Assembly: GCA_000004695.1 (NCBI GenBank)
Contig: CM000155.2
Location: 32,001 to 96,000, forward strand
Source: Dictyostelium discoideum
Lineage: Eukaryota
DNA: 64,000 bases
Direction: 5' to 3'
The notes under the pieces were generated by a model. That model did no database searches. It worked only from the letters and a program-made list of their open reading frames with translations, and was not told where the DNA came from. Position numbers and translations under genes: made by a program. Positions 52,844-60,992 of this stretch are shown in pieces (the first letter of the stretch is position 1; each line of letters starts with the position of its first letter).

Positions 52844-54689
52844 ATATTGTTATTGGTGTGAATTATCATTATTGTTGTTTTAATTAAACACTAGTGTTAT
52901 TAACATTTATTTTATTTTAAAATTTATAGCATTACTCTGAAATTATGCCATTTTTAATTAAAATCCTCAGAACTCAAACATCAGTTGAAACTAAAACACT
53001 CCGTGGTAGAGCCATTGAAACCATCTCTTTAGTAGGTCTTGCTGTAGGTAAAAAAGTATTTTTAAATGATTGTATTCAAATCATTCAATACGTTTCATCT
53101 TTAGAGAAATTCAAAGATGACGATCCACAAGTTGATTTCTTTTTAAGAGCATTCACTCGTTTCGCCCAATGTCTTGGTGAAGATTTCATTCCATACCTTA
53201 AATACTCTATGAGTCCATTAATGGATGCTATCAATGGTAAAGTTGACAGTTCCGTTGAAAATGGTGAAGATTTTAGTGATGAAAGTGTAAGTGTGACCCA
53301 TTGTTTATTATTAATTATTATTTTTTTGGAAAAAAAAAAATTATTAAAATTTTTATTTTTTTTTATTTATTTATTTATTTATAGAATAACTCTGGTTCAA
53401 TTGTTATGGAAAATAAAGCAATGGCATTAGAAATGGTATCAATTTATGCAATGGAATTAAAACATCATTTATTCCCATATGTCGAACAATTATATAAAGG
53501 ATCAATTGAATTAGTTGATTTCCCATTTAGTAGTTTAGTTGCAATTCAAGCAGTTAATCTTATTCCATTTTTGGTAAAGATTTCAAAACAACACTTTGAA
53601 GCCGTTGGTGGCCTTAAAGATGGTATGAAAGCTGAATTCACCAGTAGATTATTCTTGGATTCATATGAACGTATGGCTGCTTCCATTAAAACTGAATCTG
53701 AACCAGATACCCTCTCTGCTAAATTAAAAGCATTGTCTGATCTCATGGATATTGGTGGTCAATGTGAACAAGCTGATAGAATTCTTAGTCTCACCTTTGA
53801 AGTTGCCAATGAATCTTTCGGTACCCTCCAAGAGTTGGAAACTGAATATCAAGAAAATATCGATGAAGAGGATGAAGATGCTGATGAATCACCAGAAAGA
53901 GAGATCATTGATGATGCCTACAATAGTTTAGCAATGGTATTGGGTGAAGTTTGCATTCAATTCAAAGAAAAAGCCGTCCCTTACATTGCTACCGTCTTAC
54001 CAGCCATGATTGAACTCATTGAAACTGCTCCATCCGTTGAAATTAAAACCTCTATGATTTGCATTCTCGATGATCTCATTGAAAATGGTGGTCAAAAAGC
54101 TTTTGAACTCTATCCACACATCATTAAGCCAATGATGAATTGTACCTTACCAAATCTTGATCCATCACTCATACAAAGCGCTGTTTTTGGTATTGGTTTG
54201 GCCGCTGAAAATGGTAAAGATTATTTCACTCCATTCTTAATGGAATCACTTCAACTCATCAACAACGTCATTGTCTCTGTAAATAGTGTTCAAGAGCAAG
54301 ACGATGATTTAATTGCTGCTAGAGATAACGCAATCTCTGCTATGGGTAGAATCATCACAAATCTTCCACAACATTTAGGTAACAATTTCCCACAAACTAT
54401 TGCCCTTTGGTTAAGTTATCTCCCAATTCAAGATGATGGTGAAGCAGGTTCAATCATTAAATCTTTATGTACTTTGATTCGTGACTTTAGTCAACAAATT
54501 ATGACCCAACAATATATCGTTAAAGTTTTGGAAATCATTGCCGTAGGTCTCCATAAAAAAGCTGTCAACCCTGATGATAAACAAATCATCTCTTTGGCTC
54601 TTCGTTCTCAAGAATCTTTAGTCGCTCAATCCCTTTTCCAATTATCTGCTGAAAACCAAGCTATCCTTGCAAACTTTTTCAAAAATTAA
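50693..54689 (+). CDS. Importin beta-3 / RanBP5 / Kap121-type karyopherin, 7 exons: 50693..50854, 51109..51594, 51689..52006, 52090..52313, 52398..52749, 52930..53286 and 53385..54689; about 1067 aa.
   Basis: The blocks run in order along the human IPO5 sequence: PPVLLRTLV (AAVLLRRLL), KWPEILSFIIESSSS (QWPEGLKFLFDSVSS), WKERYTGLMTLSSISEGC (WKYRHAGLMALSAIGEGC), DSHPRVRFAFFYCLG (DPHPRVRYAACNAVG) and LRGRAIETISLVGLAVGKK (LRGKTIECISLIGLAVGKE). The donors are GTATGT/GTGTGT/GTAAGT, all phases are consistent, and intron 5 contains (CAT)19. Confidence 0.8.
52787..52843 (+). repeat. (CAT)19 microsatellite inside intron 5 of the importin gene
   Basis: catcatcat... lies between the GTAAGT donor at 52750 and the acceptor at 52928-52929. 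Confidence 0.85.
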
Positions 54690-55605: not shown

Positions 55606-55911
55606 ATGAGAGAATTTTTAAAAGATGATTATGATGTAATAGTTTGTGGTGGTGGTCCAGTTGGTATGTTAATTAATTTTTAATTTTATTCATTTATTTT
55701 TGTTATTAATGAAAAAAAAATAATAATAATAATAAAAATAATAATTATAAAAATAATAATAATTTAGGTTTGGCTACTGCATACAGATGTGCCAAAGCTG
55801 GAAAGAAAGTACTTTGTCTCGAAAAATCAGTATTCTTTAATGGAGGTGGTAGTAGTGGTGATGTTGTTAGAATGTTACGTACAATGTACACTGAAGATTA
55901 TGTAAAGTGTT

Positions 55912-55957
<46 letters not shown>

Positions 55958-58900
55958 GAAATAAATAAAATTTAAAATTGTACTAATAAATTTACTTTAT
56001 TTTTAGATGGCCGATTTAGCACATGAAACCCTTGGACTCTGGAAAGAACTTGGTGATGATGCTGGTGAAGGTGATTTAGTTTGGATGACAGGTCTCCTAA
56101 ATTTTGGTGATCCAAATTATGGTGCAGGTGGTCCAGAAGGTACTTTATTAGGACCAATTCCAAATTTAGAGAGATTGGGTATGCAATACAAAGTGTTAAC
56201 TGCTCAAGAAATTATGGAAGAGTATCCATTTAGAAACATTCCATCCAATCACCAAGGTGTTTTTGCTCCAGACAATGGTGTTATCAATTTACCATTGGTA
56301 TTACGTTCTCTTTACAAGTTATGTTTACAATATGGTTGTAAAATGGTAAGCCATGCAGAAGTTAAACTTATTAAAAATCTTAGCACAACAATGGTTGAAA
56401 TTGAAGTTGAACACACCGATGTTGACCAAAAAAATAAACAATCCTTCAAAGTTAAAAGTAAAAAAGCTGCCATTACCAGTAATAGTTTCTGTAATCATAT
56501 TATTAAACCATCATTTGGATGGGAATTAGATATGACCATTTGGGAAATGACTTCAAGTTATTTCGTTGCAAAACCAGGTCCAAATGCAACTGGTAAGTTT
56601 GTTTTATCTATATATTAGTTTATTTATGTATTTTTTTATAAAATTTATTAATATCTTTTAATTTAATTTTTAGTTTTCAAAAGTATGTGGTTCAATTTCC
56701 AAAATGATACTGATAATGACCCAACAAAATCAAATTTATACTACGGTTTCCCAGCTGTACCATGGATGACTGATAACCATTGTAGAATTGCATTGGATGC
56801 AGCATTACGTCAAATTAAAGATCCAAACGATCGTCATGATGGTGTTGAAACTCATGATGTTAATCGTACTCGTGACTGGGTTAGAGAACATATTCCAGGT
56901 GTTGACGATACTCCACTCTTTAACGTTAGTGCACTCATGGCAAATGTTTATGATAATATGTTTGTTTTAGATTTTATCCCAGAAACTAATAATAACGTTG
57001 TCATGTTTGCATGTGGTTGGGCTATGAAATTTATTCCATTATTAGGTAAAATTCTCAGTCAATTGCTTGATGAAGGTAAAACCCAATATCCAATCGATCA
57101 TTTTGCATTAAATCGTGGTAATGGTGCATTAATTATCAAAGAAGGTCAAACACCAAAGTCTGTTAATAGCCAAGTTAGAGCACCACGTTATACCTCTATG
57201 CATTGTAAACCATTAACTATTGCCAAATCAACTGTACCAACAAATCAATCATCAAATCCAGATGGTGCTTCTTCAACTGCTCCAACTCAATCTTTAAGAT
57301 CATTGTTTGCTAGCAGACTTTTACAAAGAAGTGTTGGTATGGAAGCTAAATTCCATTCAATCATTGCCAAGAATAGAAGCAAACGTTCAACCAAAGCCTC
57401 TCAAAAGGATTTGACCGTTGGTATTATCGGTGCTGGTATGGCTGGTTTATATGCAGCTATGATTCTCCAAGATTTAGGTCTCCAATATAACATTTTGGAA
57501 GCCAATAAAGAGAGAGTTGGTGGTAGAATCTACACCTATAGATTCCCACAAAATCAAGATAAATATCAAACCGTTGAACTTGGTGCAATGAGATTCCCAA
57601 AGATTGAAATTATGGATAGACTCTTAAATCTTGATAAACCTTGGTCACTCTTTTCCAAATTAGAAAAAGCTGGTCACAAAATCCCAACCATCCCATATCA
57701 TCTCACAGTTGATAACAATTTGGTTTATTACAATGGTAAGAGAATCTTTGCCAATACCTTGTTGAATGATGATCCACTTTACTTTAGTGATACTCACAAT
57801 GGCGGCCCAGGTACAGCTGTTCCAGACAAGTATACCTATCAACCATATGGTGACTTATTGGATGCCGTTTATAAGAAATTCTCTGATGACTTGGAAAATG
57901 ATTTCGAAAGTGGTTTTGAAACCCTCTTAAAATCAGATAACTATTCAACCAGAGCTTATTTATTCGAAAAAGGTCCATATCCACAATCAGTTGTCAACTA
58001 TCTTGAAACTATGGACACTGGTACAGGTTTATATGATATGGCATTCTCTGAAACCATTATGGATTATTTCGATTTCAGTGCAGGTGATGAATGGTTATGT
58101 ATTGATGGTGGTACAGATATTATTGTCAATTCTATGGTTAAAACTTTAAGACCAGGTTGTATTGAACAAGGTAAAGTTGTAACCAAAGTTTCTAGAGTAG
58201 TAGGAAAGAGTGGTGATGTTAGCAATTTGAAAGTTGATTTCCTCGATGGAACTGAAGGTCGTTTATTCAAACATGTCATTAGTACTGGTACATTGGCATC
58301 ATTACGTAGAGTTGATTTAAGTGATTTGAAATTATCGCACAATAAGAGAACTGCAATTCGTTCTCTTCATTATGATCACTCTGTAAAGATTGCCCTTTCT
58401 TTCAAATCAAGATGGTGGGAAGATTCCAAATTCATGAATGGTAAACCAATGCTCGGTGGTAAATCATCAACAGATCTTCCAGTTCGTACCATCGTCTATC
58501 CATCCTATGGTATTGGTCAACCAGGTGTTAGTGGTGTTTTAATCGTTTCTTACACTTGGAGTTTAGATGCATCCAGAATTGGTAGTTTGGTTGGTGATAG
58601 ACCAAGTGAAGAGGTCTTAATCAAATTATGTATGGCCAATCTTGCTGAAGTTCACAATGTTCCAGTCGCTACCCTCCAACAATTATTTGTTGATTACAAA
58701 TGTTGGGATTGGTATAATGATGATTATTCATCAGGTGCATTTGCTCTCTACAGTCCATCACAATTCTCTCAATTGTTCCCATCACTTACTAAACCATCAC
58801 CAGATGGTAGATTCCATTTAGCTGGTGAAGCAACATCTGTTCATCATGGTTGGGTCATTGGTTCTCTTAACTCTGCCTATCGTTCAGTCGATCACATTCT

Positions 58901-59138
58901 TCAAGTTGAAGGTCTTGATGAGTTACGTGCCAAATTACGTCTCAATTGGGGTTTCATCGATGAAGTTGAAGATCCTCAAGATGATCAACAATATGTTGAC
59001 CCACATCACAATTTAAGTGGTCCAAATGCTAAAAAATTCAGATCAAATGTATCACAAGTTGCCATTCAACCAAGATTCAAAGCTCCAAGAAACTTTAAAC
59101 CAAGAAATACTGCTGCTAGTATTGGTGGTCTTAAATAA
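55606..59138 (+). CDS. Two-domain flavoprotein: an N-terminal monomeric-sarcosine-oxidase-like (DAO family) domain fused to a C-terminal L-amino-acid-oxidase-like flavin amine oxidase. 4 exons: 55606..55663, 55768..55901, 56007..56592 and 56674..59138; about 1080 aa.
   Basis: Exons 1-3 plus the first roughly 170 codons of exon 4 follow MSOX: DVIVCGGGPVG|LATAYRCAKAGKKVLCLEK (dinucleotide fold), ..LYYGFPAVP.., ..VVMFACGWAMKFIPLLGKILSQLL..FALNRG (MSOX GFSGHGFKF..FSINRP). After an 85-aa linker the same exon encodes VGIIGAGMAGLYAAMILQ..LEANKERVGGRIYTY..LGAMRFP (LAAO GxGxxG plus EAxxRxGGR), then HYDHSVKIALSFKSRWWED..GGKSSTDLPVRTIVYP (snake/fungal LAAO [34 protein letters not shown]) and LAGEATSVHHGWVIGSLNSA (FAGEYTAQAHGWIDSTIKSG). 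Confidence 0.75.

Positions 59139-59357: not shown

Positions 59358-60992
<1,635 letters not shown>

Follow-up and report, generated by a model that had tools for sequence, protein, structure and literature searches.

The gene DDB_G0291301 of Dictyostelium discoideum AX4, located in the 64,000-nucleotide stretch of DNA analysed here (the window), encodes two complete FAD oxidases in a single polypeptide (Table 1). On balance, the protein appears to be a Rosetta-stone fusion of two enzymes that act consecutively on L-lysine and end in picolinate.

Table 1. Coordinates of DDB_G0291301 and its features, as positions in the window
Feature	Position	Strand	Assignment or basis
Whole gene DDB_G0291301	55606-59138	+	four exons; 1080 aa plus stop codon
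Exons	55606-55663, 55768-55901, 56007-56592, 56674-59138	+	ORFs, splice sites, in-frame join
GT..AG introns	55664-55767, 55902-56006, 56593-56673	+	
N-half, aa 1-408, spanning three introns	55606..57119	+	NikD-like DAO/MSOX fold; predicted piperideine-2-carboxylate (P2C) oxidase
FAD dinucleotide-binding motif GGGPVG, split by intron 1	about 55645-55768	+	
Ala346 codon, position of flavin-linking Cys (NikD Cys321)	56931..56933	+	alignment to NikD
Inter-domain region, aa 409-506	57120..57413	+	poorly conserved, predicted disordered outside the helix motif
Motif SLRSLFASRLLQR, aa 466-478, homologue of LysOX pro-peptide helix alpha-N	57291..57329	+	alignment
C-half, aa 507-1020	57414..58955	+	LysOX-type flavin L-amino-acid oxidase; predicted L-lysine alpha-oxidase
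C-half GxGxxG motif	57426-57443	+	
Asp723 codon, LysOX D289 (mature D212)	58062..58064	+	binds lysine epsilon-amino group in LysOX
Asp827 codon, LysOX D392 (mature D315)	58374..58376	+	holds water bridging to lysine epsilon-amino group in LysOX
C-terminal tail, aa 1021-1080, plus stop codon	58956..59138	+	conserved only among Dictyostelium species; predicted disordered

Gene model and domain architecture

Joining the four exons in frame yields a CDS of 3243 nt, and its product is 100% identical in residues to XP_635128.1 / UniProt Q54EW2. The ORF listing of the window contains an ORF of 203 codons in exon 3 (56007..56618) and one of 817 codons at 56685..59138 (+). A first-pass annotation, made from the sequence alone, had described a single gene encoding two complete FAD oxidases, whose fusion does not hinge on any splice prediction. 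Both points hold, and all the motifs it quoted were found in the sequence. The profile search it proposed for the two halves detected both domains: Pfam DAO PF01266 scored 116.7 bits (E 2e-33, cut-off 27.9) over aa 10-390, and Amino_oxidase PF01593 scored 158.8 bits (E 3.5e-46, cut-off 19.8) over aa 515-1002, each profile being matched from its first to its last position (1-353 of 353 and 1-443 of 443).

The orthologous dictyostelid fusions that it also proposed to look for exist: proteins with this two-domain layout are annotated in D. purpureum (63% identical), Cavenderia fasciculata (49%), D. firmibasis, D. citrinum and others, and the DAO-LAAO order is present in at least eight dictyostelid genomes. 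Therefore, the fusion is neither an assembly nor a gene-model accident. An erroneous merging of two adjacent genes has a next to negligible probability, as this architecture is shared, the one 817-codon ORF runs from the last part of the N-half through the linker to the end of the C-half, and uninterrupted ORFs encode the fusion elsewhere, such as the 872-aa P0012. The linker also lacks an AT-rich intergenic signature. The GC content stays at coding level (0.30-0.40) throughout 56000-59000 with no intergenic-type dip in the linker, against 0.12-0.25 in local introns and intergenic DNA. On the minus strand all ORFs are short, none exceeding 92 aa.

The fusion itself is already annotated in databases, Swiss-Prot naming Q54EW2 'Putative bifunctional amine oxidase [sarcosine oxidase; L-amino-acid oxidase]'. 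A cluster search with P0001, 99% identical to the DDB_G0291301 product, revealed the fusion, in both domain orders, in roughly 15 clusters of proteins grouped at 50% identity, so that the earlier remark that no such tandem arrangement was known no longer stands. Dictyostelids and several eukaryotic-looking metagenomic sequences have the DAO-LAAO order. The LAAO-DAO order occurs in bdelloid rotifers, with a signal peptide, a C-terminal membrane anchor and the same residues kept.

The C-terminal half and the linker

The C-half was first described as a generic L-amino-acid oxidase; its residues point instead to a fungal LysOX-type L-lysine alpha-oxidase. The T. viride LysOX hit has an E-value of 1e-96, identity to LysOX of T. 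viride and T. harzianum is 38-40%, and Foldseek superposition against LysOX yields a TM of 0.91 and an rmsd of 2.2 Å (LysOX structures PDB 3x0v, 7c3h and 7d4c). In LysOX, the backbone of the bound lysine is held by R145, Y446, A552 and W553, a hydrophobic hole is formed by F293, W448 and F516, and the epsilon-amino group is recognised by a triad consisting of D289 and, acting through water, D392 and the carbonyl of A517 (PMC7844570). The residues R145, D289, F293, D392 and Y446 correspond to R566, D723, F727, D827 and Y886 of the C-half, and W448, F516, A517, A552 and W553 to W888, F949, A950, G985 and W986, so the triad is kept as D723, D827 and A950. All full-length fusions retain every one of these residues, the sole exception being the conservative A552G in dictyostelids. 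In hcLAAO4, a relative of broad specificity, Glu stands in place of D289 and Gly in place of D392.

Trichoderma LysOX is a separate polypeptide with Ala at position 552, from which a 77-residue pro-peptide is cleaved off, whereas in Dictyostelium the pro-region is internal, behind an entire second enzyme. The first-pass annotation had described the region between the domains as an 85-residue linker, but it is not a neutral spacer. It is 43% identical to the D. purpureum region and 10-20% identical to those of other fusions, and the AlphaFold pLDDT is below 50 for aa 422-483. However, when the linkers of the fusions were aligned with the N-terminal regions of LysOX-family proteins that stand alone, it proved to contain a motif homologous to the pro-peptide helix alpha-N, whose T. 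harzianum LysOX counterpart is SVRTRWARRLVRE. The helix residues R11, W14, R17 and R20 contact D289/D292, I288 and F291 in LysOX (PMC7844570), and these contact residues are conserved in the linker motif in the alignment. AlphaFold places a helix at aa 467-479 with low confidence (pLDDT about 40-57). In the Trichoderma precursor, the pro-helix keeps the lysine site in a low-activity conformation (PMC7844570). Since the linker retains the pro-helix motif, the lysine oxidase half of the fusion may likewise stay latent until activated, and the internalised helix offers a natural experiment on LysOX autoinhibition.

The full-length protein was modelled with AlphaFold from an alignment of 78 sequences to see whether the domains share an interface or the pro-helix is docked. 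Each domain was modelled with confidence; their relative orientation and the linker were not (pTM 0.61, linker pLDDT below 50). Therefore, proximity or channelling has no structural support and we claim no channelling. The two-step amine oxidation suggested earlier is, once refined to a consecutive oxidation of lysine by two enzymes, the best-supported reading.

The N-terminal half and its flavin site

The N-half is predicted to be a P2C oxidase of the NikD type, as judged from sequence and fold comparisons. NikD is its best PDB sequence match by phmmer (E 2.5e-49, 171 bits, aa 7-404), compared with E about 3e-25 and ~92 bits for MSOX. Foldseek likewise ranks NikD (TM 0.93, E 6e-34) above MSOX (E 3e-29). 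The N-half shares the DAO-superfamily fold and the FAD site with MSOX/PIPOX, but the MSOX alignment covers mainly the first 190 residues, and the scores fall well under the cut-offs of the MSOX/PIPOX family (NCBIfam TIGR01377 soxA_mon, 141.9 vs 479.65 bits) and the MTOX family (NF008425, 150.6 vs 257 bits). Nor does the gene context point to sarcosine. The identity of the N-half as a sarcosine or N-methyl-amino-acid oxidase, given in the first-pass annotation, is thus not upheld.

The NikD residues R53, E101, Y258, D276, W355 and K358 align with R57, E108, Y283, D301, W375 and K378 of the N-half. Carrell et al. 2007 reportedly assign active-site roles to E101, Y258, D276 and W355 of NikD, and a role to C321 as well. 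E108, Y283, D301 and W375 are conserved in the fusions and in stand-alone homologues. The Arg/Lys pair of NikD (R53, K358) binds the substrate carboxylate (PMC6222107). Its equivalents R57 and K378 are kept in all full-length fusions, a truncated metagenomic copy (P0010) having Gln at the Lys position, and among stand-alone homologues the Arg is found in 119 of 120 and the Lys in all 120. A structure of NikD Tyr258Phe is also in the PDB.

The Swiss-Prot name and the label 'sarcosine oxidase/L-pipecolate oxidase' carried by homologues at JGI would suit two independent activities, in which a sarcosine, N-methyl-amino-acid or L-pipecolate oxidase and a general L-amino-acid oxidase are metabolically unconnected and might, for instance, jointly generate H2O2, and both halves do have O2-dependent, H2O2-forming folds. 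We regard this as very improbable: the N-half falls far short of the MSOX/PIPOX and MTOX cut-offs and is nearer to NikD, the C-half carries lysine-specific residues, and adjacency of the two genes with three different Lys-oxidase families (described below), together with fusion in both orders, points to a shared pathway. The substrate chemistries of the two halves are thus not unrelated, the substrates most likely being L-lysine and its own oxidation product.

In agreement with the first-pass annotation, alignment to NikD revealed that the covalent-flavin cysteine is replaced, the position of NikD Cys321 being taken by Ala346 within 'VSALMANVY'. Every dictyostelid fusion has Ala here. Cys occupies the position in each of the seven non-dictyostelid N-first fusions examined, in P0012, where the domain order is reversed, and in 117 of the 120 stand-alone homologues. 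Because of the replacement, FAD would have to be bound non-covalently in the dictyostelid N-half, and its activity might be lowered or abolished. The N-half could then be weakly catalytic or non-catalytic and the protein a LysOX zymogen with an enlarged pro-region, in which the N-half and pro-helix regulate, fold or localise the lysine oxidase and are maybe removed by proteolysis. The replacement is confined to dictyostelids, the N-half sits exactly upstream of the conserved pro-helix motif, and the Trichoderma pro-peptide suppresses activity more than 50-fold, is required for expression and is cleaved for activation (PMC7844570). However, the GxGxxG FAD-binding motif and all other active-site positions of the N-half are intact, and across dictyostelids it is conserved equally with the C-half, evolving no faster (62% vs 70% identity to D. 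purpureum, 56% vs 55% to Cavenderia). Non-covalent-FAD flavoenzymes of the DAO/MSOX fold also exist, and we consider the zymogen improbable. Being as constrained as the C-half, the N-half is therefore still under selection despite the loss of the cysteine. The dictyostelid replacement itself amounts to a natural test of the need for covalent flavinylation in enzymes of this fold.

Gene neighbourhoods and the proposed route from lysine to picolinate

Gene context is the strongest evidence for a shared pathway. Stand-alone relatives of the N-half form a large family, about 50% identical, in which the same residues are invariant. In a genome scan of bacteria, a flavin amine-oxidase gene adjoins the NikD-like gene in 15 of 18 loci, the partner being of the AncLLysO type in 11 and of the AncLLysO2 type in 4. 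Two of the AncLLysO-type neighbours (Rhizobiales and Cytophagaceae loci) were searched against the PDB and matched 7eih/7eii at about E 1e-216 to 1e-219. AncLLysO (7eih/7eii) is an L-lysine oxidase by its reported activity, and AncLLysO2 (PDB 7x7i) is reported as highly Lys-specific. These enzymes resemble the C-half in their reported L-lysine activity, and their natural relatives are encoded beside a NikD-like gene, but they are only 23-25% identical to it and use the recognition residues R76/E383 instead; their relatives lie in operons, with none seen fused in the loci examined. In fungi, a head-to-head Amino_oxidase neighbour was found in four of five loci looked up, and five further fungi have consecutive locus tags for the two genes. 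In T. harzianum, the gene next to the NikD-like one is none other than the LysOX orthologue. The Trichoderma LysOX locus thereby matches the fusion in both partners: its NikD-like protein is 50% identical to the Dictyostelium N-half, and LysOX shares the fold and the lysine-binding residues with the C-half, which is preceded by the motif homologous to the pro-helix. The partner gene is missing in three of the 18 bacterial loci and in one of the five fungal loci. A Chloroflexi locus, additional to the 18, was scored negative, the 588-aa ORF upstream of its NikD-like gene not being a Pfam Amino_oxidase.

Based on homology and the conserved specificity residues, we propose that the C-half would oxidise L-lysine with O2 to 2-imino/2-oxo-6-aminohexanoate, H2O2 and NH3. 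This product would cyclise spontaneously, by established chemistry, to delta-1-piperideine-2-carboxylate (P2C), which the N-half would then oxidise with O2. The predicted net reaction is L-Lys + 3 O2 -> picolinate + NH3 + 3 H2O2. The fusion would keep the second active site near the release point of an unstable keto-acid/imine, and no tunnel is implied because the cyclisation occurs in solution. NikD takes P2C to picolinate by two successive 2-electron cycles. Spontaneous cyclisation of a lysine alpha-oxidase product has been described en route to pipecolate, via the P2C reductase DpkA (PMC8957990).

Similar to the proposed route, the Streptomyces nikkomycin pathway (NikC/NikD) removes the alpha-amino group of lysine, the product cyclises to P2C, and an MSOX-fold flavoenzyme, an MSOX homologue, aromatises it to picolinic acid (PMC4021061). 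The first step there is performed by a PLP aminotransferase (L-lysine 2-aminotransferase), whereas an O2-dependent flavin lysine alpha-oxidase is predicted in Dictyostelium. In Dictyostelium and its relatives the enzymes are fused or merely adjacent, with no antibiotic gene cluster around them. Moreover, NikD has the covalent-FAD cysteine that the dictyostelid N-half lacks.

Because the N-half is only about 28-35% identical to NikD, its product could differ from picolinate, for example by stopping at the 2-electron stage. The two halves might thus be coupled through lysine-derived cyclic imines by another second reaction, namely a single 2-electron oxidation, conversion of L-pipecolate, made by an unlinked reductase, to P6C on the way to 2-aminoadipate in lysine catabolism, or action on the 2-imino acid. 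The same synteny and fusion evidence would fit, and pipecolate oxidases occur among MSOX-family members, as the JGI labels suggest. We consider such an alternative second reaction rather unlikely, though with an appreciable chance, given that the NikD-type active-site positions are invariant across the subfamily, that no reductase gene lies consistently beside the pair in the loci inspected, and that the family falls outside the TIGR01377 cut-off.

Beyond Dictyostelium, we tentatively propose, at somewhat less than an even chance, that a lysine oxidase and a NikD-like P2C oxidase together make up a two-enzyme route by which lysine is turned into picolinic acid, one that is widespread but has gone unrecognised. 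Many bacterial phyla would encode the two enzymes in operons and fungi in head-to-head gene pairs, the classical Trichoderma LysOX locus among them, and dictyostelids, other protists and bdelloid rotifers would have them as one fused protein. L-lysine alpha-oxidases, much studied as anticancer and biosensor enzymes, have until now been viewed as enzymes that act alone, generating H2O2 as a 'weapon' or for biosensors; the route, if correct, would give them a physiological partner and product. Picolinic acid is a phytotoxin and metal chelator known from fungi. Its genes in fungi were stated to be unknown in a 2008 rice-blast paper (PMC2441471), and the route would supply a genetic basis. It would also be a second way to picolinic acid, started by an oxidase and not an aminotransferase. 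For DDB_G0291301, the vague label of a bifunctional sarcosine oxidase and LAAO would give way to a specific, testable reaction, D. discoideum would be predicted to make picolinate, and the protein would be a ready-made single-polypeptide catalyst from lysine to picolinate. No report of picolinate from Dictyostelium was found in the literature searched.

Judged by eye, the protein has no PTS1-like ending (C-terminus …IGGLK) and no signal peptide, its N-terminus opening directly with the Rossmann motif, and published lists place it in cytosolic pull-downs. A cytosolic H2O2-producing lysine oxidase is physiologically awkward, which counts against the pathway proposed here. No functional study of DDB_G0291301 / Q54EW2 was found in the literature searched. 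The gene appears there in published lists only, as 3.3-fold up in lrrB- cells, in the UBXD9 interactome and in an O-fucose pull-down.

Gene model and domain identity

The fusion gene DDB_G0291301 (UniProt Q54EW2) lies in AT-rich Dictyostelium DNA. In-frame joining of its four exons yields a CDS of 3243 nt encoding 1080 residues, and the gene model of the first-pass annotation proved identical to the reference model. The GC content stays at coding level (0.30-0.40) throughout 56000-59000 and falls to 0.12-0.25 in the introns and flanks only, this profile revealing no intergenic-spacer-like signature in the inter-domain region. Pfam search of the product found both domains complete, DAO at residues 10-390 and Amino_oxidase at residues 515-1002, which together with the exon join bears out the proposed fusion. 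Being annotated, the fusion as a bare observation is already known.

Coordinates of the features in the window, in the fusion proteins and their relatives, and at the retrieved loci (L numbers; positions local to each locus)
Feature	Location	Strand	Remark
Four exons of the fusion gene	55606-55663, 55768-55901, 56007-56592, 56674-59138	+	GT..AG borders, sequence reading
817-codon ORF	56685..59138	+	ORF scan of the window
203-codon ORF	56007..56618	+	ORF scan of the window
427-codon ORF	53406-54689	+	upstream of fusion gene
Serine hydroxymethyltransferase (SHMT) gene	59358-60782	-	tail-to-tail with fusion gene
Pro-helix motif, D. discoideum	aa 466-478		SLRSLFASRLLQR
Pro-helix motif, D. purpureum			SIRSMFAKTLLQR
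Pro-helix motif, T. harzianum			SVRTRWARRLVRE
Pro-helix motif, Orbilia			SIRALWAQRLVRE
D. purpureum fusion gene	L032:10001-13366		contig GL871124.1
D. purpureum P0157 gene	L032:7110-9108	same as fusion gene	contig GL871124.1, directly upstream of fusion gene
Extra genes at the T. harzianum LysOX locus	L002:4725-6497 and L002:14738-16644	- and +	
588-aa ORF, Chloroflexi metagenome	L008:8192-9958	+	43 nt upstream of NikD-like gene

The N-half (residues 1-408) had been described as sarcosine-oxidase-like, an assignment that did not hold. Search of the solved structures gave 171 bits against NikD, the Streptomyces nikkomycin enzyme, over residues 7-404, versus about 92 bits against monomeric sarcosine oxidase (MSOX), mainly over the first 190 residues, and profile scoring placed the N-half well short of the thresholds that NCBI curates for MSOX/PIPOX and for MTOX. 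Foldseek comparison of the full-length AlphaFold model, in which the confidence is good within both domains, returned NikD as the best structural match of the N-half (TM 0.93) and the Trichoderma L-lysine alpha-oxidase LysOX as that of the C-half (residues 507-1020; TM 0.91).

Alignment of the N-half with NikD revealed that R53, E101, Y258, D276, W355 and K358 are all kept, of which we take E101, Y258, D276 and W355 to be active-site positions, and that Ala346 occupies the position of Cys321, the flavin attachment site, in agreement with the earlier remark that the covalent-flavin Cys is replaced. The Arg/Lys pair (R53 and K358 in NikD) binds the substrate carboxylate in MSOX, MTOX and NikD alike (PMC6222107). 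The stand-alone relatives of the N-half, a large family of proteins of about 400-460 residues from fungi and bacteria, are about 50% identical to it, and the seven NikD positions are essentially invariant among them (Cys in 117/120); across the fusions and 120 stand-alone homologues compared, Ala at the flavinylation site is confined to dictyostelids. A reduced or lost activity of the dictyostelid N-half is thus conceivable. Despite the Ala, however, the N-half is conserved as well as the C-half, with identities of 62% versus 70% to D. purpureum and 56% versus 55% to Cavenderia. We therefore read the dictyostelid N-half as a probably functional domain with non-covalent FAD.

The best match of the C-half among solved structures is Trichoderma viride L-lysine alpha-oxidase (E 1e-96), followed by the broad-specificity fungal enzyme hcLAAO4. 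In LysOX (precursor numbering), the substrate backbone is bound by R145, Y446, A552 and W553, a hydrophobic hole is formed by F293, W448 and F516, and the epsilon-amino group is bound by D289 together with a pair of waters, which D392 and the A517 carbonyl hold in place (PMC7844570). The corresponding residues in the aligned D. discoideum C-half are R566, Y886, G985 and W986, then F727, W888 and F949, and finally D723, D827 and A950. The lysine-binding set is kept apart from one conservative Ala-to-Gly (A552 to G985), and its positions are conserved throughout the full-length fusion orthologues. At the two lysine-recognition aspartates, D289 and D392, hcLAAO4 has Glu and Gly. Crystal structures of the LysOX D212A/D315A double mutant (mature numbering of D289 and D392) with bound tyrosine and phenylalanine, found among the structure-search matches, fit with these two aspartates setting the specificity.

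A pro-helix motif in the linker

When the fusion sequence ahead of the second GxGxxG was aligned with stand-alone LysOX-family proteins at their N-termini, a shared motif emerged. In the LysOX precursor prLysOX this motif forms helix alpha-N, in which R11 pairs with D289 and D292 while V10 and W14 pack on I288; the helix displaces the lysine-binding helix and lowers the activity more than 50-fold, an inhibition lifted by proteolysis or acid pH (PMC7844570). The D. discoideum counterparts are R468, F471 and R474 on the helix side and M722, D723, F725 and D726 on the domain side, and AlphaFold predicts a helix at residues 467-479 whose position is not confidently placed. The alignment supports homology of the linker motif to helix alpha-N, and by analogy with prLysOX we infer that it might hold the fusion protein in a latent, autoinhibited state.

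Stand-alone LysOX-type paralogues also occur in dictyostelids. P0157, a D. purpureum protein of 642 residues with the pro-helix motif, is 61% identical to the C-half and seems to have arisen by tandem duplication of that half only. Further examples, 46-51% identical, are D. discoideum DDB_G0271476 (P0314), its relatives P0310-P0313, and Acytostelium P0317 and P0320, the only two Acytostelium sequences among the hits, which included no Acytostelium fusion. They begin with a hydrophobic, signal-peptide-like stretch followed by the pro-helix motif, and are thus probably secreted, in contrast to the fusion.

Fusions and gene pairs across lineages

Orthologous fusions, which the first-pass annotation had suggested seeking in other dictyostelids, were found in D. 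purpureum (63% identity), Cavenderia fasciculata (49%), D. firmibasis, D. citrinum and D. dimigraforme, as well as in several eukaryote-looking metagenomic sequences. When 1.84 billion representative proteins were searched exhaustively with HMMER, about 15 clusters at 50% identity matched both halves. Some of them, including those of the bdelloid rotifers Didymodactylos and Rotaria, have the reversed order, with the LAAO preceding the NikD-like domain; both halves retain the same active-site residues, and in the complete proteins a signal peptide precedes the two domains at the N-terminus and a membrane anchor follows them at the C-terminus. In the metagenomic N-first fusion P0006 (1095 aa) the N-terminus is extended by a signal-peptide-like sequence, …LLSSSDTLCSAFGS…, with an ASAF-type motif of the kind known from plastid or ER targeting in stramenopiles. 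Lineages may differ in the compartment to which the fused enzyme goes. In the reverse-order P0309 of Rotaria sordida (969 aa), the second dinucleotide-binding motif is degraded to GGDPVG and the flavin-linking Cys position is Tyr; some rotifer copies may be decaying or shifting function.

Counterparts of the two halves are also encoded by adjoining genes. In T. harzianum the NikD-like gene stands head-to-head with a 618-aa LysOX orthologue, pro-peptide included, and in Hypsizygus, Aspergillus wentii and Pestalotiopsis fici with Amino_oxidase genes of 647-667 aa. In five further fungi (Orbilia javanica, Arthrobotrys conoides, Xylographa soralifera, Cosmosporella and Rostrohypoxylon) the pair is numbered consecutively by locus tag or protein id; no partner was present within 10 kb of the F. 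oxysporum gene. Both genes form an operon in Microcoleus and in one bacterium each of the Cytophagaceae and the Rhizobiales, with overlapping stop and start codons in the Rhizobiales case. In a bacterial scan taking one genome per species, an amine-oxidase gene adjoined 15 of 18 NikD-like loci. Eleven of the 15 neighbours share 53-100% identity with the Rhizobiales neighbour, which, like that of Cytophagaceae, matches PDB 7eih/7eii (E about 1e-216 to 1e-219), the L-lysine oxidase AncLLysO reconstructed from such bacterial sequences (PMC8405998). The other four belong to another family, and the two compared with PDB match 7x7i (E 1e-104 and 1e-236), AncLLysO2, an enzyme of high specificity for L-lysine (PMC9730747). 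The NikD-like enzyme is thus partnered with at least three flavin lysine alpha-oxidase lineages, mutually only 23-30% identical, and in rotifers is fused to a fourth partner, an animal-type LAAO. Such repeated pairing is not easily accounted for if the NikD-like enzyme does not use the product of lysine alpha-oxidation.

The Chloroflexi metagenome locus has a NikD-like gene without a recognised amine-oxidase partner. The 588-aa ORF beside it has the size of the usual partner, yet is unrecognisable (no Pfam match), and could be either a partner that has diverged very far or a gene with no relation to it. Beside the T. harzianum pair stands another DAO-family gene, intron-containing and annotated at 510 aa, and an Aa_trans amino-acid transporter follows about 3 kb downstream; an MFS transporter adjoins the pair in P. 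fici and a purine/cytosine-type permease in A. wentii. Pair and transporters may form a small fungal cluster for lysine utilisation or export.

Proposed pathway and genomic setting

The 2-oxo/2-imino acid produced by lysine alpha-oxidase cyclises spontaneously en route to pipecolate, via a step of delta-1-piperideine-2-carboxylate (P2C) reductase (PMC8957990). In nikkomycin biosynthesis, an aminotransferase takes lysine to P2C, which the MSOX homologue NikD converts to picolinic acid (PMC4021061). Combining both chemistries, the C-half would produce what NikD, the closest relative of the N-half to have been characterised, takes as substrate. We propose that the C-half would oxidise L-lysine with O2 to the 2-imino/2-oxo acid, H2O2 (and NH3), that this product would cyclise spontaneously to P2C, and that the N-half would convert P2C and 2 O2 to picolinate and 2 H2O2; the fusion may add a kinetic benefit, if any. 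The logic is that of NikC/NikD, but with an oxidase replacing the aminotransferase, and it occurs both in fused form and in that of a portable two-gene module. No literature tying LysOX-type enzymes to a NikD-like partner, or predicting picolinate, was found in a search that most subscription journals lay outside, and a prior description of the link may exist.

Physiologically, the protein may serve to break down lysine, to make a chelator or toxin, or to generate H2O2. No targeting signal is obvious in the fusion protein, which is listed in published cytosolic pull-downs; its gene is 3.3-fold up in lrrB- cells, alongside discoidin genes, in a published list.

Upstream in the window, the 427-codon ORF appears helical-repeat-like by eye, has no Pfam match and probably represents the final exon of some larger gene. 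The SHMT gene has two visible exons (59358-60272 and 60414-60782; Pfam SHMT E 4e-108 and 1e-40), separated by an intron of about 140 nt, most of it taken up by an A/T homopolymer run of about 90 nt.
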